A stretch of DNA of 12,666 nucleotides from a bacterium. GTDB taxonomy: Bacteria > Zhuqueibacterota > Zhuqueibacteria > Oceanimicrobiales > Oceanimicrobiaceae. The position numbers and the translations under genes were made by a program. The DNA is taken from the NCBI GenBank assembly GCA_046757165.1, contig JBHHXT010000134.1, positions 1 through 12,666 of the forward strand, written 5' to 3'. Shown here one piece after another: positions 2,393 to 12,428 of this stretch; position 1 is the first letter of the stretch, and each line of letters starts with the position of its first letter. Under the pieces are notes generated by a model, which worked only from the letters and a program-made list of their open reading frames with translations, did no database searches and was not told the origin of the DNA.

Positions 2393-2421
2393 TTGACAAA
2401 TAGCATGTCGTTAACTATATT
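2393..2421 (+). promoter_or_regulatory. Sigma70 promoter of the DtxR/MntR regulator (possibly of the whole cluster)
   Basis: Consensus TTGACA (2393-2398), 17 bp spacer, TATATT (2416-2421); A-tract (UP-like) at about 2371-2386. Confidence 0.8.
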
Positions 2422-2428
2422 GCCTGCG

Positions 2429-2447
2429 ATTTGTCAGGCTAATAAAA
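2429..2447. promoter_or_regulatory. Candidate DtxR-family operator (autorepression)
   Basis: ATTTGTCAGGCTAATAAAA is an imperfect palindrome (TTTGTCAG-G-CTAATAAA). Its core GTCAGGCTAAT matches 9/11 of the DtxR/IdeR core GTTAGSCTAAC, and it lies directly after the predicted +1. Confidence 0.55.
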
Positions 2448-2512
2448 CAAGTTGCATGTTTCTATACCAATAAGCATGCTTGGCTACCTCCTTATGAACT
2501 GCGAGTAGAACA

Positions 2513-3037
2513 ATGGAAACCTGGAAAGCTTTTGAACACAACGTCATCACGCACAGCGCCGCACACCACATCATGACGATCGCACATTTGATCGACAAAA
2601 AGGGCTATGCCCGAGTCACCGATGTGGCCAAACATCTTGGAATTACGCGCAGCAGCGCTTCCATTACGCTCAAGACTTTGAAAGAACGAGGGTATATCGA
2701 GGAGGACGAGAACAAGTTTCTTCGACTTTCTCAGGAAGGGAAACGCCTCAGTTCATCTATTCTATCCAACAGAATCATTCTGATCAGATTCCTGCAGGAC
2801 GTGCTTCAGGTTGAGCCGTCGCAAGCAGAGATCGATGCCTGTAAGATGGAGCATTTGCTGAGCAAGGAATCCTGTGAAAAACTCTTTCGGTTTTTGAGGT
2901 TTTTATCTTCCGAGGACACCCGGGTGAAAACCTTATTGAGTGCCTTTTGGCAGTATGAATGCACCTGTGCAGGTCAGGCCGATGATTGTGGAATCTGCGA
3001 AACAGAGTGTTTAATGCCGGAGGATGGAGACCTTTAG
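2513..3037 (+). CDS. DtxR/MntR-family metal-dependent transcriptional regulator with Cys-rich C-terminal tail
   Basis: wHTH (ARVTDVAKHLGITRSSASITLKTLKERGYI), dimerisation/metal motif AEIDACKMEH (CxxEH), tail CxC-x6-CxxC-x3-C; 174 aa, no SH3/FeoA domain. Confidence 0.92.
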   Translation: METWKAFEHNVITHSAAHHIMTIAHLIDKKGYARVTDVAKHLGITRSSASITLKTLKERGYIEEDENKFLRLSQEGKRLSSSILSNRIILIRFLQDVLQVEPSQAEIDACKMEHLLSKESCEKLFRFLRFLSSEDTRVKTLLSAFWQYECTCAGQADDCGICETECLMPEDGDL

Positions 3038-3072
3038 GCGCTGACAAGTCAAGTTCTGTCATTTTTTGGCAA

Positions 3073-3126
3073 GCCCCGACTGTCCAAATTGTATTCCCAA
3101 AATGACTGTCGGGGCAAGACTTTTTT
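3073..3126 (+). terminator. Inverted repeat after the regulator; possible weak terminator or repeat-element end
   Basis: GCCCCGAC-T-GTC (3073-3084) pairs with GAC-T-GTCGGGGC (3104-3115); 19-nt loop; T6 starts 5 nt after the stem. Non-canonical geometry. Confidence 0.35.
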
Positions 3127-3140
3127 GTGGTTCAGTTCTT

Positions 3141-3190
3141 TTTCGAATTTAGAGCTTACGATTTCGAATTTCCGGCTTGTCCGGCTTAGG
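3141..3190. repeat. Heptamer-periodic repeat remnant ending in CCGGCTTGTCCGGCTTAGG
   Basis: TTTCGAATTT occurs twice, 21 nt apart (3141, 3162), with 7-nt periodicity between; CCGGCTT occurs twice (3172, 3181). Confidence 0.45.
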
Positions 3191-3193
3191 ACA

Positions 3194-3317
3194 TAAAAAA
3201 CACGCTGCTTCCCTCTGCCAAGGGTAAGGCAGCGTGTTATTCAGAAAAGAGGCAACATACAGGGCTAGTGTATTCACCACTTCTTCTTTTGAGGAGAGGA
3301 GTAGTGCGCCTTTTTCT
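3194..3317 (-). ncRNA. Putative antisense sRNA 1 (~120 nt)
   Basis: Bounded by a minus-strand promoter (3323-3351) and a minus-strand terminator (3195-3238). Closing stem AGAAAAAGGC/GCCTCTTTTCT encloses two hairpins. Same layout as 8084-8243. Confidence 0.6.
3195..3238 (-). terminator. Intrinsic terminator on the minus strand
   Basis: Minus strand AACACGCTGC...GCAGCGTGTT 10-bp perfect stem, inner CCCTT/GAGGG stem with a G-U pair, followed by a U6 run (A6 at 3195-3200 on +). Confidence 0.7.
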
Positions 3318-3322
3318 TTGTC

Positions 3323-3351
3323 AAAATAGTTATCGAACAGCAAAAAGTCAA
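3323..3351 (-). promoter_or_regulatory. Antisense sigma70 promoter 1
   Basis: Minus strand TTGACT (3351-3346), 17 bp spacer, TATTTT (3328-3323). Confidence 0.62.
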
Positions 3352-3429
3352 GCTTTAATCCCTTTCAATTCAAGTATCGGAACGATGACGAATAGAACCA
3401 TTTCAACCAACAAATTAACGGAGGCTATC

Positions 3430-5943
3430 ATGCGAAGTAATCGAGGCCTGATTCGCTCAGTTTTTCTCCTGTTCCTGACTTTTTCGATTTGCTCTTTATC
3501 GCACGCGCAAACGCGCCAGAACAATGGCACCGGCTCTGATTCAAACCACGGAAACATCCGAGGCGTGGTACACGCTCTGGGCACCGGCCAACCTCTGGCC
3601 GCTGTGAACGTTGTGCTCAAAGGGACAAATTACGGTGCAGCGACGGCGAGTGATGGCAGTTTTGTCATCAGCAACGTGCCGTCAGGCCGTTATGTCATGG
3701 TGGTGAGCAGGGTGGGCTACCAGCGCGAGAAGCGCGAATTTCGCCTGACCAAAGATGAGGTGCTGAGCTTCGAGTTCAACCTGTCTGTCAAAGCGGTCGA
3801 ATTCGATGCCATCGTGGTGGAACGAACCTCGCTGGTCGGAAACAAGGACCGCATATTCAGCATCCCCGGTTCGGCACATTACTTGGATGCGAAGGATCTG
3901 GCCAAATTCGACTACAACGACATCCATCGCGCCTTGCGGGAGGTGCCAGGCATCAATATCCAGGATGAAGACGGGTATGGGTTGCGCCCGAACATTGGAT
4001 TCCGCGGCACGGGTGTGGAACGGAGCTCGAAAATTACGGTGATGGAAGATGGGATCTTGCAAGCGCCCGCCCCGTACTCAGCGCCAGCAGCCTACTATTT
4101 CCCAACCGTTGGGCGCATGAGCGGCATCGAAGTCCGAAAAGGCTCCAGCCAGATCAAGTATGGTCCCTACACCACCGGAGGCGCATTGAATCTTATTTCC
4201 ACACCGATACCAGGCGATTTTGACGGCTATTTGGAGATTCTCGCCGGTGAGGATGACACGCGACGAATTCACGCCACGGCCGGGAATTCCTTCAAGAATT
4301 TTGGATTTGTGGCAGAAACCTTTCAAGCAAAGACCGACGGCTTCAAAAGGCTTGACGGCGGTGGCAATACCGGATTCGATAAAGACGACTACATGCTCAA
4401 GTTCCGGTTCAACACGGACGAAGAGGCGAAAGTTTACCAGCAGCTCAGTTTCAAATTTGCGCAAACAGATGAGATTTCCAATGAAACCTACCTGGGCCTG
4501 ACCGAAGCCGATTTCCGCAAAAATCCGGTTCGCCGCTATGCCGCCTCTCAGAATGATGTCATGAAGACCGAGCATACTCAGATTCTGGTCCGCCATTTTA
4601 TCAAGCCGGCAAACGCCCTTGATCTGACGACGTCGTTTTACCGAACGGACTTCCAACGCAACTGGTACAAATTGGACCGAATTCGCGCCACAGAAGATGG
4701 CTCGAGAACGAAAATCGCTGCGGTCCTGGCAGATCCATCAACCTTTGCGGCGGAATATGCCATTGCGACCGGGCAAACCAGCCCAAATGACAATGCCCTG
4801 GAAGTGAAAGCCAACAACCGGGATTACTTTGCCTGGGGCCTGCAAACTCAGGTCGGACTCCGATTCAAGGCCTTGAATGCCTCCCATGAAGCGGAAGTCG
4901 GCCTCAGATATCACAAAGATCAAATCGACCGCTTTCAGTGGGTTGATTTGTTTCGGATGGAAGAGGGGACCATGGAACTCAGCCGGCCGGGCATCCCGGG
5001 CACGGAGAGCAACCGCATCGGCGAAGCAAAAGTCTGGGCCGGATTTGCCCAGGTCACGCTACACTTCGGCAAGCTGACGGCGGTCCCCGGAATCCGGTAT
5101 GAAAACATGGACCTGACCCGCGATGACTTTGGCAAAGAGGATCCGGACAGAACGGGAATCAACCTGAAGAGCCGCAGCAACCAGGTGGAGGTCGTGATCC
5201 CCGGTGTGGGGTTGGACTACAAGTTTACGCCCACCTTCAGTTCGTTTCTGGGCGTCCACAAAGGGTTTGCTCCACCAGGCTCGAAGGAAGGGACCGACCC
5301 CGAGGAAAGTATCAACTATGAATTAGGCGTCAGAATAAACCGGCCGGACTTCAGTGCACAAGGTGTGGTATTCTTCAATGATTACAGCAACTTGTTAGGC
5401 TCCGACCTGCTGGCGAGCGGGGGCGAGGGCACGGGCGACCAATTCAACGGCGGCGAAGTCAATGTCGTTGGCCTGGAGCTCTCTCTGAACACTGACTTCG
5501 CCAGCAGAATGACACGCCCGGGCCTCGTCATTCCATTTCGCCTGGCCTATACCCTGACGGAGACGGAATTCCAAAATACCTTTGAAAGCAGTTTTGGCCC
5601 CTGGGGGAATGTCGAAAACGGCGATGAATTGCCATATGTGCCCAAACATCAATTATTTGCCAGTATCGGCATGGAAAGTCAGCGAGTTGGCGTGACTGTT
5701 GGCGCAAAATACACCAGCAAAACACGAACCCAACCGGGTCAGGGTGAGTTTGTTGACGAATCGAGTACAGATTCTCGCCTGGTATTCGATCTTTCTGCCA
5801 ATTTCGCTCTCACCAACGCGAACAAGATCTTTGCGACTGTCCGCAACCTCTTTGACGAGAAATATGTCGCAGCGCGACGACCGGCAGGAGCCCGGCCGGG
5901 CCTGCCAAGGACGTTTGTGGCCGGGATCAAAACGAATTTTTAG
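3430..5943 (+). CDS. TonB-dependent outer-membrane receptor, FecA-like, with N-terminal carboxypeptidase-regulatory-like domain
   Basis: GGAGG RBS at 3420-3424, so true start is ATG 3430 (837 aa). Signal peptide ends ...SHA. N-terminal GNIRGVV...GRYVMVVSRVGY domain; TonB-box-like DAIVV; plug EDGYGLRPNIGFRG...SSKITVMEDG...APAPYSAPAAYYFP...IEVRKG; C-terminal NLFDEKY...PRTFVAGIKTNF. Confidence 0.93.
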   Translation: MRSNRGLIRSVFLLFLTFSICSLSHAQTRQNNGTGSDSNHGNIRGVVHALGTGQPLAAVNVVLKGTNYGAATASDGSFVISNVPSGRYVMVVSRVGYQREKREFRLTKDEVLSFEFNLSVKAVEFDAIVVERTSLVGNKDRIFSIPGSAHYLDAKDLAKFDYNDIHRALREVPGINIQDEDGYGLRPNIGFRGTGVERSSKITVMEDGILQAPAPYSAPAAYYFPTVGRMSGIEVRKGSSQIKYGPYTTGGALNLISTPIPGDFDGYLEILAGEDDTRRIHATAGNSFKNFGFVAETFQAKTDGFKRLDGGGNTGFDKDDYMLKFRFNTDEEAKVYQQLSFKFAQTDEISNETYLGLTEADFRKNPVRRYAASQNDVMKTEHTQILVRHFIKPANALDLTTSFYRTDFQRNWYKLDRIRATEDGSRTKIAAVLADPSTFAAEYAIATGQTSPNDNALEVKANNRDYFAWGLQTQVGLRFKALNASHEAEVGLRYHKDQIDRFQWVDLFRMEEGTMELSRPGIPGTESNRIGEAKVWAGFAQVTLHFGKLTAVPGIRYENMDLTRDDFGKEDPDRTGINLKSRSNQVEVVIPGVGLDYKFTPTFSSFLGVHKGFAPPGSKEGTDPEESINYELGVRINRPDFSAQGVVFFNDYSNLLGSDLLASGGEGTGDQFNGGEVNVVGLELSLNTDFASRMTRPGLVIPFRLAYTLTETEFQNTFESSFGPWGNVENGDELPYVPKHQLFASIGMESQRVGVTVGAKYTSKTRTQPGQGEFVDESSTDSRLVFDLSANFALTNANKIFATVRNLFDEKYVAARRPAGARPGLPRTFVAGIKTNF

Positions 5944-6008
5944 GGAGCTAGCGAAGCTCCAGGTGTCGGTTCAACTGAATGCGGTAGGATGAAAGAGAGA
6001 CGTCGTGC

Positions 6009-8036
6009 ATGACCATGAAACAAAAACTACGAACTAGTCTGGTTTTCGCACCGCTTGCAATCGCAATCCTGTTCCTGGTTCTGCCAGCAGGGGACAAGAC
6101 TGCCTCAGGTTTGAATCGTGCGCCAAAGATACAGAGGGCGACCCCGAGCATTGAACCTGAAAGACTCATTTCCTACCTGCAGTACATCGGGGCGGATTAT
6201 GATGCAGCGGTCGAGAATCACAAGATAGTCAATAAAGATGAATACCAGGAGATGGTGGAGTTCAGTGAGGCCGCCATCGAAGGATACATATCACTGAACC
6301 GGGAGAACACCGCCAGGCCAACATACCGGGCGTTACAAAGAGTGCGAGAGCTTGTCGGGGCAAAAGCTTCTGGGTCAGAAATCAAAATCTTGACCAGCAA
6401 ATTAGTCCGGGAGTTATCTACGGAATTGAGTGTCACCCCTTATCCTACCCACACACCGGATTTGACAGCGGGCAAGAAGTTCTACGAGATCGCCTGCGCT
6501 GAATGTCATGGCTCGAGCGGCGATGGCCAGGGACGTTCGGCGAAAGCGTTGAATCCTCCGCCGAGCAATTTTCAGAATCCCGAGCGCATGTTGGAGGCGA
6601 CGCCGCACCAATTCTTCAACGTGATCACGTTCGGGGTTCAAGGCACCGCCATGCCTTCCCACCAACAGGCCTTTACCGACCAGCAGTGTTGGGATATTGC
6701 ATTCTATTTGATGACGCTGCGCGGGGATTTTTCACCTGAGCTGCCGGAACAGGAAGTCGGGTTTTCCATAAGAGATTTGGCCACTTTATCCGACAAGCAG
6801 CTCGTCCAGCGTCTGGCAACTGAGCCCCGTGCAAAGGTTCTGACATCTTCTCCAGACTCGCACTGGACGAGCGTCATTGACTATTGGCGCCAGAATCCGC
6901 CAGAAGTCAATCCCGATGAAAAACTGAATGCCGCGCAGCAGAAACTCAGCAAGAGTATCACGGCCTATCAAAATGGGCAATCGGACCAGGCGGTGCAGCT
7001 TGCATTGGACGCTTATTTGGAAGGGATCGAACCGGTGGAGCCACTTCTGTCGCAAAAGGCGCCGGCGTTGGTCACGGTTGTAGAAAAAGAATTTGGCCAG
7101 TACCGTCGCGCTGTCAGAAGTGAAGCGCCCATGACGCAGGTCACTCAGCGTTATCGAAAGTTGGTGAACATTTTTGAAGAAATCAGGTCCACATTCGGGT
7201 CTTCAGAAGCTGTCACCGGGTTTGCTTTCATTCAATCCTTAACGATCATCTTGCGCGAAGGAACCGAAGCCGTACTTTTGATCGCTCTTTTGATGACTTT
7301 GCTGGTGGCCCTGGGCCATCAAGGGTTGAAAAAATATTTGACCGCCGGGGCCGTGGCGGGTATCGTTCTGGGCGGCTTGACCTGGATCGCCGCGCAACGC
7401 TTTGTGGTGATCACTCAATTTGAACAAGAGACTCTGGAGGGGATGACCTCTCTATTGGCCGCCGCGGTTTTGTTTTGTGTAAGTTTTTGGATTATCCACA
7501 AGTCAGACCTGCAAAAGTGGAAAACCTATATCCAGACAAAAGCTGAAAAAGCGCTCGGAACAGGAAGTGGCTTCGCGCTTGCGATGGCGGCGTTTTTGGT
7601 TGTTTATCGCGAAGCATTCGAGACCGTCCTTTTCTATCAGGCATTATGGTTGAGGAGCAGTGTGGTTCATTCTCAAATAATCTCCGGATTTATTTTGGGA
7701 GTGGCGGCTCTTATCGTACTCGTATTTTTCATTCTCAAGTTTGGATTGAAGATTCCTCTCGGGCCCTTTTTTGGTGTTACCGGAGTTCTACTCGGACTTT
7801 TGGCCATCGTTTTTGCTGGCTATGGCGTGAGAGAATTACAAAGCATCGGCTTGCTGAACGAAACCCCTCTTTCTCTGAATGTTGATTTGAACTTTTTGGA
7901 AATCCATTCGACTTTGGAGGGGCTGGCCCTTCAGTCGGGAATCCTGCTTTCGTTCTTGTTAGGTTGGTTTGGCCTTCTTGTCGATAAATTCAGGTTGGCC
8001 AGGCAGGTCGAGCCAAAACACGCCACTGCTGAGTAA
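6009..8036 (+). CDS. Cytochrome c / FTR1 (EfeU, PbrT-like) high-affinity iron permease fusion
   Basis: CxxCH heme site CAECHG with distal Met in GTAMP; N-terminal YIGADY...EYQEMVEF block; C-terminal multi-pass membrane domain with two RExxE motifs (REGTE, REAFE). Start could be 6015. Confidence 0.92.
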   Translation: MTMKQKLRTSLVFAPLAIAILFLVLPAGDKTASGLNRAPKIQRATPSIEPERLISYLQYIGADYDAAVENHKIVNKDEYQEMVEFSEAAIEGYISLNRENTARPTYRALQRVRELVGAKASGSEIKILTSKLVRELSTELSVTPYPTHTPDLTAGKKFYEIACAECHGSSGDGQGRSAKALNPPPSNFQNPERMLEATPHQFFNVITFGVQGTAMPSHQQAFTDQQCWDIAFYLMTLRGDFSPELPEQEVGFSIRDLATLSDKQLVQRLATEPRAKVLTSSPDSHWTSVIDYWRQNPPEVNPDEKLNAAQQKLSKSITAYQNGQSDQAVQLALDAYLEGIEPVEPLLSQKAPALVTVVEKEFGQYRRAVRSEAPMTQVTQRYRKLVNIFEEIRSTFGSSEAVTGFAFIQSLTIILREGTEAVLLIALLMTLLVALGHQGLKKYLTAGAVAGIVLGGLTWIAAQRFVVITQFEQETLEGMTSLLAAAVLFCVSFWIIHKSDLQKWKTYIQTKAEKALGTGSGFALAMAAFLVVYREAFETVLFYQALWLRSSVVHSQIISGFILGVAALIVLVFFILKFGLKIPLGPFFGVTGVLLGLLAIVFAGYGVRELQSIGLLNETPLSLNVDLNFLEIHSTLEGLALQSGILLSFLLGWFGLLVDKFRLARQVEPKHATAE

Positions 8037-8083
8037 CAGAGAACAAAGCGGGCATGTCAAGATAGACAAAATAGCTGCAAAAT

Positions 8084-8135
8084 AAAAAAGGAGTGAGCCA
8101 ACTTCCCTCGGCAAAGGTTTGAGCTGACTCACTCC
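8084..8135 (-). terminator. Intrinsic terminator on the minus strand
   Basis: Minus strand GGAGTGAGTCAGCT/AGTTGGCTCACTCC 14-bp stem with two G-U pairs (A-C mismatches if read on +), followed by UUUUUUAUUUU. Confidence 0.75.
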
Positions 8136-8243
8136 AGGAAAGCGGGAAAAGACGGACCCCTCAGATGCCACCAGGCTTGTCGGCCAGCCGGCATTCTTTT
8201 GGGGGTGACAAAGGAATGAACCTTTGTCACCGGCTTTTTCCGT
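8084..8243 (-). ncRNA. Putative antisense sRNA 2 (~160 nt)
   Basis: Bounded by a minus-strand promoter (8249-8277) and terminator (8084-8135). Closing stem CGGAAAAAG/CTTTTCCCG encloses an 11-bp perfect hairpin and an ATGCC/GGCAT hairpin. Shares architecture and a 16-nt motif with 3194-3317. Confidence 0.62.
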
Positions 8244-8245
8244 TT
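8204..8245 (+). terminator. Perfect 11-bp hairpin followed by GGCTTTTTCCGTTT; possible sense-strand attenuator before receptor 2
   Basis: GGTGACAAAGG (8204-8214), loop AATGAA, CCTTTGTCACC (8221-8231), then a U-rich tail offset by 3 nt. Confidence 0.4.
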
Positions 8246-8248
8246 GGG

Positions 8249-8277
8249 AATATAGCAAATCAAAAAATAAAAGTCAA
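8249..8277 (-). promoter_or_regulatory. Antisense sigma70 promoter 2
   Basis: Minus strand TTGACT (8277-8272), 17 bp spacer, TATATT (8254-8249). Confidence 0.68.
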
Positions 8278-8289
8278 AGGAGGAGAATC

Positions 8290-8376
8290 ATGAATAATAG
8301 AGCGCCGCCATTTACAGACTCGATTGTCAAAAAACAAACGACATTACCAAATTACAACGGACAAGGAGATATCTAA
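8290..8376 (+). CDS. 28-aa upstream ORF / leader peptide MNNRAPPFTDSIVKKQTTLPNYNGQGDI
   Basis: Strong SD AGGAGG (8278-8283) 6 nt before the ATG. Stop TAA (8374-8376) is 1 nt before the receptor-2 ATG, and the ORF runs over that gene's own SD. Confidence 0.5.
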   Translation: MNNRAPPFTDSIVKKQTTLPNYNGQGDI

Positions 8377-8377
8377 A

Positions 8378-10546
8378 ATGCAGATAAGAAACAGACTCTC
8401 AGTCATCATGCTGGTCTGCCTGTTGGCTCCTGTTGGCGCCTTTGCGCAAAACAAAGGCGAAATAAAAGGACGCGTGACGGACCAGGAAACCGGTGATCCG
8501 CTCATCGGTGCCAATGTAACGATCGTCGGGACGGCTTTGGGGGCGGCAACGGACCGGCATGGCGCCTACCGCATATCTCGAGTCCCGCCTGGAAGGTGCA
8601 CGCTACGTGCCTCCATGATCGGTTTCCAAACCGTCACCGTGAAGGAAGTTCAAGTCAATGTGCAGGAAAAGGCGACTGTGGACTTTGTGCTGGCCGCGCG
8701 GGCCCTGCCTCTGGATGAAATCGTGGTCACCGCCACCCGCACCGAAAAACTTCTCAAAGATGTGCCAGCCACCACCGAGATTGTCAGCCGCGAGGAGATC
8801 GAAGAAAGCGGAGCAGAAGATATCAGCGAGATACTGGAGGAGAAGGCCGGCATTCGCATGCGAAAAAGCGAAGGGCACGGCTGGGGTGTGCAGATGCAAG
8901 GCCTGGACGCCGAGTACGTGCTGGTTCTGGTGGATGGCGAAGAGATCATCGGCCGCACCGCCGGCTTGGTGGACCTGCGGCAGATTCCCATCGAGAGCAT
9001 CGACCATATCGAGATTGTCAAAGGCGCCGCGTCTTCGCTATATGGCAGCGAGGCCATGGGCGGGGTCATCAATATCATCACCAAAACCGCCAGTGCGCCG
9101 TTGGCTGCGCGGATCACCACGACTTTTGGCACCCACGACAAGAAAGAACCGCGGGCGACGCTGGAATTCAAACAGCACGGGCTCAGCGGCATTCTGACCG
9201 CCAGTCGCAACCTCTCCGACGGCTTTGACATGGACAAGTCAGATGTGGCGCACAACGGCTCGCCGTATGAAAAAACCAGCGTGACGGGGAAATTTACCTA
9301 TGACTTGTCCTCCAATGCCAGGCTGACCTTTTCCGGGTATCTCTACGATGAAACTTACCGGCCGGTGAGTATCTCGCGCGGCGATGTTTTCGATGCGGCT
9401 TCCGATGAAAAGCGCAAGCACGGCAGTCTGGCGCTGAACTGGAAGCCGGACGCCCTTTCCAATGTGCAGATCAAATTCTACGCCTCCGATTACGACCGCG
9501 ATACAGACAAGAGCTTTCGCACCAGCGAACGGCTGGATCAATCCTTTGAGGAAGAAAATCAAATACGCGGCGAGCTGGTTTTCAGCCGGCTTTTTGTGGG
9601 AAAACATCTCCTGACCGTTGGCCTGGACGCTTTCCGGGAAACTTTAGAAGCGAAAGAGTCCAGTACGGTTTCAACCGAAGTAAATGAGACGCCGCATCAA
9701 AGTGAGAACACCAAGGTCGTTTACCTGCAGGATGAAATTCAACTGCTGAAACCCTTGACTCTGGTGGTCGGCGGCCGTTTGGACCATCATTCCGCTTTTG
9801 GGTCGCATATTTCGCCCAAGGTCAATTTGCACTACAAACTGAGCGAAAATGTATCCTTTCGCGGGTCTTACGGCCAGGGGTTCCGCGCGCCATCGATCAA
9901 AGACCTGCACCGGACGTTTATCAATTTCGCTCACGGCTACCAGGTGTTGGGCAATACCGACCTGCAGCCGGAAACCTCCACCAGCGTCAATTTTGGGGCT
10001 GATTTCCGCTGGCGGGACAACATACTCGGTAAAGTCAATGTCTTCCGTAACGATTTGCACGACGCCATCCGGGCCAATTTCGACGGCATGGTCGAAAATC
10101 GTTTGAACTTTGTACAGCAAAATATCGGCGAGGCTTTCACCGAGGGAATTGAAACGGAAATCCAAACCCATTTTGCCAGGTATTTTTCCGTTTCAGCCTC
10201 CCATGCTTACGTCTGGTCGGAAGACAAAGAAACCGGTGAGGAGCTTTTGGGCGTTTCCCGTAACACCGCCGATTGGAAGCTGGAGTTCAACCACAGGTCC
10301 ATTGGGTTCAATGCGAACATTCGTGGCGAATATGAAGGCGGGTGGCTGTTCACCAGCGGCCGCGGTCAAAACGTTGAAACCAAAAGGTCGCCTTCGTACG
10401 TGACCTGGGATTTTCGAGCCAGTCAGAGATTGTCCCGATATCTCAAGCTTCATTTTGGTGTGGATAATATTTTTGACCGGCAGGAGATAAAGTTTGAACC
10501 GCGTCCGGGACGCGAGGTTTATGGCGGGTTCAGTTTGAGCTACTAA
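8378..10546 (+). CDS. TonB-dependent outer-membrane receptor (heme/CirA/BtuB-type) with N-terminal carboxypeptidase-regulatory-like domain
   Basis: AAGGAG RBS at 8363-8368, start ATG 8378 (722 aa). Signal peptide ends ...AFA. TonB box DEIVVTATRT; plug IDHIEIVKGAASSLYGSEAMGGVINIITK; barrel GFRAPS...NTDLQPE; C-terminal GVDNIFD...GREVYGGFSLSY. Confidence 0.94.
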   Translation: MQIRNRLSVIMLVCLLAPVGAFAQNKGEIKGRVTDQETGDPLIGANVTIVGTALGAATDRHGAYRISRVPPGRCTLRASMIGFQTVTVKEVQVNVQEKATVDFVLAARALPLDEIVVTATRTEKLLKDVPATTEIVSREEIEESGAEDISEILEEKAGIRMRKSEGHGWGVQMQGLDAEYVLVLVDGEEIIGRTAGLVDLRQIPIESIDHIEIVKGAASSLYGSEAMGGVINIITKTASAPLAARITTTFGTHDKKEPRATLEFKQHGLSGILTASRNLSDGFDMDKSDVAHNGSPYEKTSVTGKFTYDLSSNARLTFSGYLYDETYRPVSISRGDVFDAASDEKRKHGSLALNWKPDALSNVQIKFYASDYDRDTDKSFRTSERLDQSFEEENQIRGELVFSRLFVGKHLLTVGLDAFRETLEAKESSTVSTEVNETPHQSENTKVVYLQDEIQLLKPLTLVVGGRLDHHSAFGSHISPKVNLHYKLSENVSFRGSYGQGFRAPSIKDLHRTFINFAHGYQVLGNTDLQPETSTSVNFGADFRWRDNILGKVNVFRNDLHDAIRANFDGMVENRLNFVQQNIGEAFTEGIETEIQTHFARYFSVSASHAYVWSEDKETGEELLGVSRNTADWKLEFNHRSIGFNANIRGEYEGGWLFTSGRGQNVETKRSPSYVTWDFRASQRLSRYLKLHFGVDNIFDRQEIKFEPRPGREVYGGFSLSY

Positions 10547-10561
10547 GCTCAAAAATGGATG

Positions 10562-10596
10562 GAACGCGGATTTAGCGGATAGAACGAATCGTCACG
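10562..10596. repeat. Short 9-nt-period repeat remnant (GCGGAT/ACGAAT units)
   Basis: AAC-GCGGAT-TTA-GCGGAT-AGA-ACGAAT-CGTC-ACG: three units with 9-nt spacing. Confidence 0.3.
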
Positions 10597-10655: not shown

Positions 10656-12428
10656 ATGCAGACAAGAAAGGCACAAGCTCTCAGACTGATTATTGTAACA
10701 GGCATACTGCTGGCTGTTTTTGGTTCCAGCCTCGCCCGTGCCGGCACCGGGCCAGGGTTCATCGTTTTGGCTCCTGACCGCGGCTTTATGGGCAACAACG
10801 AAATCCGCGAGGTTTATCATGAGTTTCAAAAGACTCACGCCAACGTCCCGTCGCAACTGGTCTTTGCCAGCCGCAAGGCGCTGTCAACCTATTTGACGGA
10901 TGCGGTGCAGGCTTTGGAGAACGCGGGCGCGACGGAAATCGTGGTCATCCCGTTGTTCTTATCGGAAAGCGATCCGGATCTGCAAAGAGCCAGAAGTCTT
11001 TTTGCTCCTTCGTCTGAAAGTTCAAATGTCGCGGAACAAAATGATAGAGTTAAGGTGGACCGACCTCTCACACTTGCTCAGACGCTGTCCGCAAGCTATC
11101 TCACCGTCCAGATTCTCGAAGACCGGGCCAAAGAGCTGAGCGAGACGCCTTCCAATGAACGGCTGATTGTGATCGGGACGGGCGCCTCCAACCGCAAAGA
11201 AGCAGCAATGATGGAGGAAGAACTGCACAGGCTGGCGCAGCAAGTGCAAAGAAAGATAGGTTTTGAAGAAACCCATAGTCTTGTTTATCTACGCCGGGAG
11301 TCAGAAGAGGGACCGGCGCGCCGGACGGAAATCAGCCAGGAGATCGAGCGCCTGGCTGCGCTGGAAGGCAGAACCCTGGTCGTGCCGTTTTTCATCAGCA
11401 TGAAGCTCACGCCCATGATGTCGGTCGAAAACATGCTGGGCAAGTACACCCTGCGGGATGTGGAAATCAGTTACGCCGGCAAATCGATTCTGCCGCACGC
11501 CAATGTCGTGCGCTGGCTCCAGAGAACGGCCAACCGTTACTTGCCGGTAACAAAGGAGAACATCGGCGTCGTGTTCATGAATCACGGCTCGTTTTACTAT
11601 TATAATGAAAAGGTGCGCCGGGTGGTCCAGCCGATGGCGGAAAAGTACAAATTAGAGTACGCCATGAGTATGGGCGACCCCTTTCTCATTCAAGAAGCCG
11701 TGAGCCGGTTGGAAGCACGGGGAGCGACGCATATCGTCTTACTGCGTGCCTTTTCTTTGACCTCCTCTTTCAAAGCAAAGATCGAATACATCCTCGGCCT
11801 CGACGATGCGCTGGCCGAAAACAACCGCATGGGGCGTCTCCCGGACCGCGTGCGCAGCAGCGCCCTTCTTTACACCGCCGGCGGCGTGGAGGATGATCCG
11901 CTGTTCGCCGAAGTGCTGCTCGAACGAGCGCTGGCCATCAGTCAAAAGCCGGAAGAAGAGACGGTGATTCTGGTAGCGCACGGATTGGGCGACGACCAGG
12001 GCGACGAGCGGTGGCGAACGATTCTGCGGTCTTTAGCCTCTCAGATGCAGGCGCTGGCCAAAGACAAATTCAAGGCAATCAAGGCAGCCACCTGGCGGGA
12101 AGACTGGCCGGACAAACGCCCGCAGGCGGTTGCGGAGGTCAAAACGCTGATTCAACAGGCGCAGGAAGACGGCGGCCGCGCGCTGGTGGTCGCGGCCCGG
12201 CTGGAAGGCAACGACCCGGGGGATGAGTTTCTCGAGGGCGTGGACTTTCTTTACAACGAACAGGGGTTTTCCGGGCACCCGAATTTCACGAAGTGGATTG
12301 CGCAGGAAATCGAGGCGGCGGTTGTCAGGATTCAGGGGGCGCAGCAGACGTTGTCGAAAGAATCCGCCGCTGGCGGCTCACCTGTTACAGACTATTCTGA
12401 GGATGGGTATTCAGAAAAACAGCTTTGA
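10656..12428 (+). CDS. Secreted CbiX/SirB-like (class II chelatase fold) protein with four tandem domains
   Basis: AGGAG RBS at 10643-10647, start ATG 10656 (590 aa). Signal peptide ends ...ARA. CbiX-type motifs: AVQALENAGATEIVVIPLFL, LIVIGTG...VVPFFI...LPHANV, VVFMNHGS...EAVSRLEARGATHIVLL, VILVAHG...GHPNF. Internal duplication: ILEDRAKELSETPSNERLIVIG versus VLLERALAISQKPEEETVILVAHG. Confidence 0.8.
   Translation: MQTRKAQALRLIIVTGILLAVFGSSLARAGTGPGFIVLAPDRGFMGNNEIREVYHEFQKTHANVPSQLVFASRKALSTYLTDAVQALENAGATEIVVIPLFLSESDPDLQRARSLFAPSSESSNVAEQNDRVKVDRPLTLAQTLSASYLTVQILEDRAKELSETPSNERLIVIGTGASNRKEAAMMEEELHRLAQQVQRKIGFEETHSLVYLRRESEEGPARRTEISQEIERLAALEGRTLVVPFFISMKLTPMMSVENMLGKYTLRDVEISYAGKSILPHANVVRWLQRTANRYLPVTKENIGVVFMNHGSFYYYNEKVRRVVQPMAEKYKLEYAMSMGDPFLIQEAVSRLEARGATHIVLLRAFSLTSSFKAKIEYILGLDDALAENNRMGRLPDRVRSSALLYTAGGVEDDPLFAEVLLERALAISQKPEEETVILVAHGLGDDQGDERWRTILRSLASQMQALAKDKFKAIKAATWREDWPDKRPQAVAEVKTLIQQAQEDGGRALVVAARLEGNDPGDEFLEGVDFLYNEQGFSGHPNFTKWIAQEIEAAVVRIQGAQQTLSKESAAGGSPVTDYSEDGYSEKQL

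Follow-up and report, generated by a model that had tools for sequence, protein, structure and literature searches.

Two spacers of an iron-uptake operon on a 12,666-nt contig (the window: JBHHXT010000134.1 of assembly GCA_046757165.1, family Oceanimicrobiaceae) each hold a minus-strand cassette of fewer than 200 bases that is very probably a transcribed antisense RNA gene. Judged by sequence, these cassettes are a real, uncatalogued, lineage-restricted family, new and without an Rfam match. A preliminary description of the window had likewise proposed undescribed, paralogous, structured antisense RNAs in a long regulator-driven operon, and the homologs and paralogy reported below bear this out. 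We lean towards reading the cassettes as constitutive cis-antisense RNAs that would set a threshold by repressing the downstream gene, through RNase III cleavage, premature termination or both. By analogy, the best reading is that they work like plasmid kissing-loop antisense control, as members of neither the CopA nor the pT181 family.

As the preliminary description had noted, the same minus-strand layout recurs upstream of both TonB-dependent receptors: a standard-looking promoter, a helix-closed body with two hairpins, and a terminator with its U-tract (Table 1). The TTGACT-N17-TAT(T/A)TT promoters follow the organism's own consensus, with 124 genome-wide matches at a spacing of 17 compared with a mean of 5.5 at eight other spacings. 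A matrix scan placed no DtxR-like operator at the antisense promoters, and neither cassette spacer contains a sense promoter of the lineage consensus, in line with that description. The predicted pairing of GAAAAAG with CUUUUC was recovered in both cassettes, the 5′ purine tract closing on the distal CUUUUC around two hairpins (z = -4.1 for copy 1). At the terminator tip of copy 1, a UGGCAG hexaloop (3215-3220) sits on a 3-bp upper stem with a 5×3 internal loop below. The terminator motif reported as common to both copies is identical at 14 of 16 core bases, a level reached by none of 172 other terminator-like hairpins in the genome. The suggestion that terminator G-U pairs work only on the minus strand holds for copy 2 (-27.4 kcal/mol on the minus strand versus -19.1 on the plus) and fails for copy 1, whose stem has no G-U pair and whose strands fold equally (-23.9 versus -24.2 kcal/mol). 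The second hairpin of copy 1 folds well on the plus strand, using G-U pairs. From these promoters and terminators, each cassette would make a constitutive antisense RNA, of ~125 bases for copy 1 and ~160 bases for copy 2.

Tracing the operon's proteins through 167 genomes of the phylum led to two cassettes in G005 and two in G002. A model built from four copy-2-like terminators (R1; copy 2 and three relatives) returned, as its best non-training matches in 28 kb, copy 1 (E 0.002) and its G002 counterpart (E 0.0001). Because R1 found copy 1 blind, the window cassettes are, on sequence grounds, paralogs. Scanning for the architecture brought in G012 as well as two short look-alike units in G007 and G022. 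A second model, from three copy-1-like cassettes (R2), recovered the copy-2 type and newly found G003 and G009:C4, and a third (R3), at E 0.05, had matches in 7 genomes out of 150, each belonging to the window's taxonomic family, adding G013:C15; deeper R3 scoring contributed G009:C89 and G013:C230. In all, the family numbers at least 12 copies across 7 genomes, all from a single taxonomic family, with the two look-alikes, which escape R3, in addition; per genome, the best 20-150 out of several hundred candidates were scored, which makes this count an underestimate. Matches of R1 in G070, G078 and G083, and of R2 or R3 in G017, G022:C444 and G013:C662, were rejected as sequence lacking the module, and R2 matches in G001, G011 and G025 (E 0.19-0.44) were left out of the family count. 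MAFFT alignments, which put the two subtypes off by one column, were excluded from model building. An Rfam scan of the window and seven homolog loci gave no match near the gathering score (the R100 CopA control scored 106 bits), consistent with the initial failure to recognise a known family. The literature searched, outside whose scope lay most subscription journals and supplementary motif tables, contained no publication describing these cassettes.

The distribution of the cassettes is patchy. One lies directly 3′ of the regulator at 4 of 31 regulator loci, and one accompanies 1 of 5 receptor-1 orthologs in relatives. Among 53 loci of receptor-1 homologs in metagenomes, none had the core motif at 0-1 mismatches; inspection of 31 of the upstream regions found AT-rich Fur-like boxes or nothing, and no cassette. 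The 16-base core pattern had one outside match across the 167 genomes, in a coding region. A pattern scan of all species genomes gave four matches, two of them DNA already counted (L176, L178) and two chance occurrences in coding regions, and the same scan of viral contigs gave none. Four community DNA runs (low depth; possibly from the window's source study) contained contigs with further variants of the copy-2 hairpin; three came from run X1, and all three carry a change that yields the loop UUGGCG. One community contig retains the cassette promoter with a different spacer.

We give almost no credence to a repeat, a mobile miniature element or an invertible promoter. A 12-13 base inverted repeat does flank the promoter in both short look-alikes. 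Within the window's 6.09 Mb genome, however, R3 finds only the two copies (best 150 of 477 candidates), as expected of something other than a genome-wide repeat, and inverted repeats are not above chance in any of seven family copies tested, the longest arm in the window copies being 5-6 bases. No strand-changing joint is listed among the contigs of the four DNA runs. A strict post hoc scan of the genome for promoter, A-tract and terminator gave three matches, two of which are the window cassettes.

Conserved across copies are a purine-rich 5′ arm that pairs with a tract of pyrimidines and a terminator with a 5-base by 1-5-base internal loop, a short upper stem and a hexaloop. Homologs and covariation had been named as a test: in eight aligned copies, the lower terminator stem shows both-side changes with pairing kept at 14 of 14 pairs (93% of cells paired; 0 of 500 shuffles), in an alignment fitted to the model and among kin that are not independent. 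The strand with the U-tract gives the more stable terminator fold in 11 of 12 copies compared, by a margin of 0.3 kcal/mol or less in two. Nine of the 12 family terminators fit the loop motif U[UG]G[GC][CA]G; the G012 hexaloop parse was forced and is not counted toward it. The inner hairpins vary freely while this apical module is conserved, as would be expected if only pairing kinetics mattered, and by eye no pairing between the loops of the two inner hairpins was seen across copies.

The antisense promoter is clear in 11 of 14 copies, partial in one and absent from G005B and G013:C15. What varies least among the copies is promoter, orientation and terminator, and the look-alikes have all three without the loop module. 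One other unit in the window's genome (G000:C27:30854-30967), unrelated in sequence, has the same antisense promoter-terminator layout; it follows a ZIP-like transporter (named by protein reading) and precedes a small gene and a receptor-like gene. Such constancy could mean that convergent transcription alone, by polymerase collision or occlusion, is what counts, with the terminator shielding the upstream gene and the RNA a by-product. We think this unlikely, as it leaves unexplained the conserved hexaloop module, including its retention in the two promoterless copies.

All 14 copies, look-alikes included, are oriented against two co-oriented genes. The proposed ties to TonB receptors and to iron both loosen in this larger set: only 4 of the 14 precede a TonB receptor, and 10 lie within iron-uptake operons. 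Those ten are followed by a TonB receptor (4), a porin-like gene (2) and one each of an FTR1 fusion, an Fe2+-transport protein, an ABC binding protein and a small Cys-rich protein. The other four stand in secreted-protein arrays, between TolB-like lipoproteins and secreted proteins. Because of these contexts, the cassettes, as read from sequence, are tied to junctions within operons, in front of genes for mostly exported proteins, rather than to receptors. The cassette in G005 is preceded by a separate sense promoter and is thus likewise inside a messenger. The arrays themselves (L219, L233, L230 and L234, around 1500-1660) combine TolB-like lipoproteins with secreted proteins bearing FlgD/type IX-type tails. 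Separately, 19 bases of a G001 TonB receptor gene (L017:1501-1519), at the conserved S-x-G-x-G-F-R-A-P motif, match the tip of cassette 2 on the plus strand; the match is probably chance (about one 16-base match is expected), because other loops do not preserve the codons.

These features suggest the following course of events. As promoter and operator scans indicate, the iron repressor would govern one long messenger starting at 2393. The antisense RNA would be present at a steady level, because the antisense promoters lack an operator. By analogy with CopA/CopT, the six-base loop above the internal loop would nucleate Hfq-free pairing with the operon messenger, beginning loop-to-loop at the terminator tip. 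The duplex would then be cut by RNase III, or a hairpin-U stop on the sense strand would be favoured, or both. Leaky transcription would thereby be absorbed, and the downstream exported protein would be made only once derepression exceeds the supply of RNA. RNase III is present in the genome, and a search of the genome for Hfq gave no match. Support for this threshold mechanism comes from the distinct hexaloops of the two window copies, with weaker predicted cross pairing (-20.4 kcal/mol for copy 1 against copy 2, weaker than -31).

The closest likeness is to CopA/CopT of IncFII plasmids (RF00042) and Inc RNA/repZ of I-complex plasmids, which share with the cassettes a short counter-transcript and a GC-rich terminator hexaloop above an interior loop. 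The part of PMC3753616 bearing on these systems describes UUGGCG as the common target loop of three plasmid systems and the interior loop near the top as needed; likewise, CopT is credited in the relevant part of PMC10798244 with a U-turn motif. Cassette loops are of the UUGGCG/CGCCAA type, with exact UUGGCG in the G002A and G009:C4 terminators, and CopT and the G003 RNA have a 13-base word in common. Unlike the plasmid systems, the cassettes are chromosomal, have no rep gene and no conserved leader peptide, and would make an RNA whose 5′ end lies in a helix enclosing one or two hairpins. CopA membership was rejected: RF00042 goes unmatched, loop polarity is reversed, and in place of a tap-repA leader the cassettes have downstream genes for transport or secreted proteins, with an upstream open reading frame (ORF) in one copy. 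A type I antitoxin RNA was also rejected, as no hydrophobic toxin ORF lies opposite and the sole small ORF (8290-8376) is hydrophilic and was not seen in other copies.

Other antisense systems resemble the cassettes in part. PMC5703833, in its account of these RNAs, treats pT181 RNAI and pIP501 RNAIII as transcription attenuators and pSK41 RNAI as a translational switch. Like the attenuators, the cassettes have, at the sequence level, an antisense promoter inside the leader and a candidate sense terminator, and copy 1 has an earlier competing helix resembling the pre-emptor as that account presents it. In contrast to pT181 and pIP501, no antisense-dependent terminator switch is predicted for the cassettes by equilibrium folding, only copy 1 has a strong competing helix, and the sense terminator lies within the antisense-covered stretch. 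Among iron-regulated operons, RNAbeta of Vibrio anguillarum fatDCBA-angRT is portrayed in the pertinent section of PMC8383071 as a cis-antisense RNA acting by termination, and IsrR/isiA of Synechocystis in that of PMC3516471 as one acting by co-degradation. The cassettes share with both, so described, a cis-antisense RNA in an iron-regulated operon. Whereas these sources present RNAbeta and IsrR as single, locus-specific RNAs, the cassettes are modular, occupy varied junctions, occur twice per operon and are also found outside iron operons.

On the sense strand, a hairpin ends 0-3 bases 5′ of a U run in window copies 1 and 2, G005A, G005B and G012, and less firmly in G002A. Copy 1 can form an earlier, transient helix (-8.6) in competition with its final sense hairpin (-15.4); at equilibrium the hairpin prevails with or without blocking. 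Equilibrium folding predicted neither an antisense-dependent terminator nor a ribosome-site switch for the two window copies. By the same predictions, the mechanism is clearer in the G007 and G022 look-alikes, which have a clear repressive ribosome-site switch: with the cassette blocked, opening the ribosome site becomes costlier by 7.1 kcal/mol in one (9.4 to 16.5) and by 5.7 kcal/mol in the other (7.5 to 13.2). There, a 12-13 base stretch immediately beyond the promoter is complementary to an arm of the cassette and pairs with it (0 of 100 shuffles), and the end of this stretch is the anti-ribosome-site. The predicted logic is that of pSK41 RNAI as outlined in the source above, in which a covered upstream arm frees an anti-ribosome-site arm; a binding-induced ribosome-site helix of this kind is not predicted for either window copy. 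The three-part switch is conserved between the look-alikes (L152:1215-1425 and L122:2955-3165) and stands before a porin-like gene in each.

Several observations weigh against threshold-setting repression. Two copies have no recognisable promoter, covariation in four close copies alone is not above shuffles (242 of 500), and the count of G-U versus A-C in terminator stems is 10 to 3 (p = 0.09). G002B has no candidate sense terminator; elsewhere the sense terminators fold with or without the RNA, lie within the antisense-covered stretch and are equally compatible with activation. Blocking the window cassettes leaves ribosome-site opening unchanged (5.2 to 4.8; 3.9 to 4.0), and blocking the kissing hairpin alone alters no downstream fold. 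The look-alike switch may not transfer to the family, because the family model misses the look-alikes. Finally, in plasmid R100 (L229) CGCCAA is on the CopA terminator hairpin and UUGGCG on the messenger, whereas in the cassettes it is the small RNA that carries the UUGGCG-type loop.

The sense hairpins bring in the main rival, activation, which we regard as possible though unlikely. The messenger would end by default at the sense hairpin-U inside the cassette, and the antisense RNA would bind the loop first and unzip the hairpin, allowing read-through. The hairpin-U arrangement in the copies listed above fits this, as does the absence of a sense promoter downstream, and the variable inner hairpins would supply binding time. 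However, besides the missing hairpin of G002B, several copies have short U runs, and these runs simply arise as the complement of the tract at the RNA's 5′ end. Repression is what is predicted for the short look-alikes, and the plasmid and iron-operon analogues, as their sources depict them, repress (PMC3753616, PMC8383071, PMC5703833, PMC3516471). No more probable is a portable module serving as a gene-by-gene dial at operon junctions, in which kissing loops of reversed polarity, diversified for separate action, would produce read-through activation.

The reversed polarity would also suit action in trans, with the RNA targeting other messengers, the operon messenger sponging it at low iron and the U-turn-type loop marking the RNA as the target. 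The helix burying the 5′ end would stabilise such an RNA, and terminator loops of trans-acting small RNAs can, according to the portion of PMC11979758 concerned with them, regulate an iron receptor gene. We nevertheless rate trans action as rather improbable: the copies share no single-stranded seed, crude screening of the start regions of 4268 ORFs (a noisy set) gave no partner above shuffles, Hfq has no match, and the cassettes are invariably antisense inside an operon. Very unlikely, in our judgement, is a functional sense strand, acting as a metal-sensing riboswitch or as a messenger processing or stability element. Copy 1 and G002A have sense folds nearly as stable, the two promoterless copies persist, and sense hairpin-U stops exist; against this, no junction bases are conserved, antisense promoters are kept in 11 of 14 copies, four copies lie in non-metal arrays, and no Rfam riboswitch matches.

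Most of what is known of kissing-loop antisense control comes from plasmid copy control. A family of chromosomal cassettes recurring at different operon junctions would show that an uncultured lineage, one without an Hfq match, has reused this plasmid device to fix the ratio of costly envelope proteins and the threshold for making them. Its natural loop variants would be ready-made parts for specificity rules and synthetic regulators, and if activation were true, the cassettes would be natural transcription-activating RNAs.

Public runs that contain the window carry the label hydrothermal vent metagenome and belong to one study, perhaps its source; those listed include no RNA run, which has no bearing on expression. 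The window (contig C134 of a genome 99.98% complete) has its genes in a single direction: the DtxR/MntR-like repressor, TonB receptor 1, the cytochrome c-FTR1 fusion, TonB receptor 2 and the CbiX-like protein (Table 1). The predicted operator has the window's top score, using a matrix from 26 homologous upstream regions with its own site excluded. Palindromic operators of the TGTTT-N10-AAACA type recur class-wide just 3′ of DtxR-like regulator promoters (L146-L175), and feoAB follows most of those regulators. Iron is the likely signal of the repressor, because its relatives mostly precede feoAB.

Table 1. Positions of cassette parts, operon genes and other features in the window
Feature	Position	Strand	Remarks
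Cassette 1 antisense promoter	3351-3323	-	TTGACT-N17-TATTTT
Cassette 1 body	3244..3316	-	Two hairpins within a closing helix (3304-3316 paired to 3244-3257)
Cassette 1 terminator hairpin and U-tract	3194..3238	-	
Cassette 2 antisense promoter	8277-8249	-	TTGACT-N17-TATATT
Cassette 2 body	8145..8241	-	Two hairpin arms within a closing helix (8230-8241 paired to 8145-8155)
Cassette 2 terminator hairpin and U-tract	8084..8135	-	Hexaloop UUGCCG at 8109-8114
Candidate sense-strand terminator, cassette 1	3268..3318	+	Prediction only; hairpin stops one base before UUUUUCUU
Candidate sense-strand terminator, cassette 2	8204..8239	+	Prediction only; 11-bp hairpin, three bases, U run
Operon promoter	2393..2421	+	TTGACA-N17-TATATT; only good sense promoter in the window
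Predicted operator of DtxR-like regulator	2431..2450		Matrix scan
DtxR/MntR-like metal-dependent repressor	2513..3037	+	
Multi-copy non-coding repeat	3041..3190		Outside cassette 1; 11 genomic copies longer than 120 nt
TonB-dependent receptor 1	3430..5943	+	Siderophore-receptor-like; score under curated cut-off
Cytochrome c/FTR1 iron permease fusion	6009..8036	+	
Upstream ORF	8290..8376	+	28 codons; strong ribosome site; stops one base before receptor 2
TonB-dependent receptor 2	8378..10546	+	Heme-receptor-like; score under cut-off
CbiX/ferrochelatase-like protein	10656..12428	+	Operon's last gene

No counterpart of the upstream ORF was seen in the other cassette copies. The receptor 2 ortholog in G003 is 71% identical and likewise lies 3′ of a cassette; genes for MotA/ExbB and CobN/Mg-chelatase follow it (L227:2019-10544). 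A receptor followed by MotA/ExbB and CobN/Mg-chelatase is a layout of heme-uptake operons, which hints at a role in heme uptake for receptor 2 and the CbiX-like gene.

The multi-copy repeat between the regulator and cassette 1 contains a hairpin and U run that might lower read-through; it also occurs in many partial copies genome-wide and in relatives. A second short repeat of ~37 nt lies between receptor 2 and the CbiX-like gene (10553-10590; 52 BLAST rows genome-wide). Several relatives carry, 3′ of the regulator, a small and conserved Cys-rich ORF (C-x2-C ... C-P-Q-H-L-P), at L153 and elsewhere among the regulator loci.

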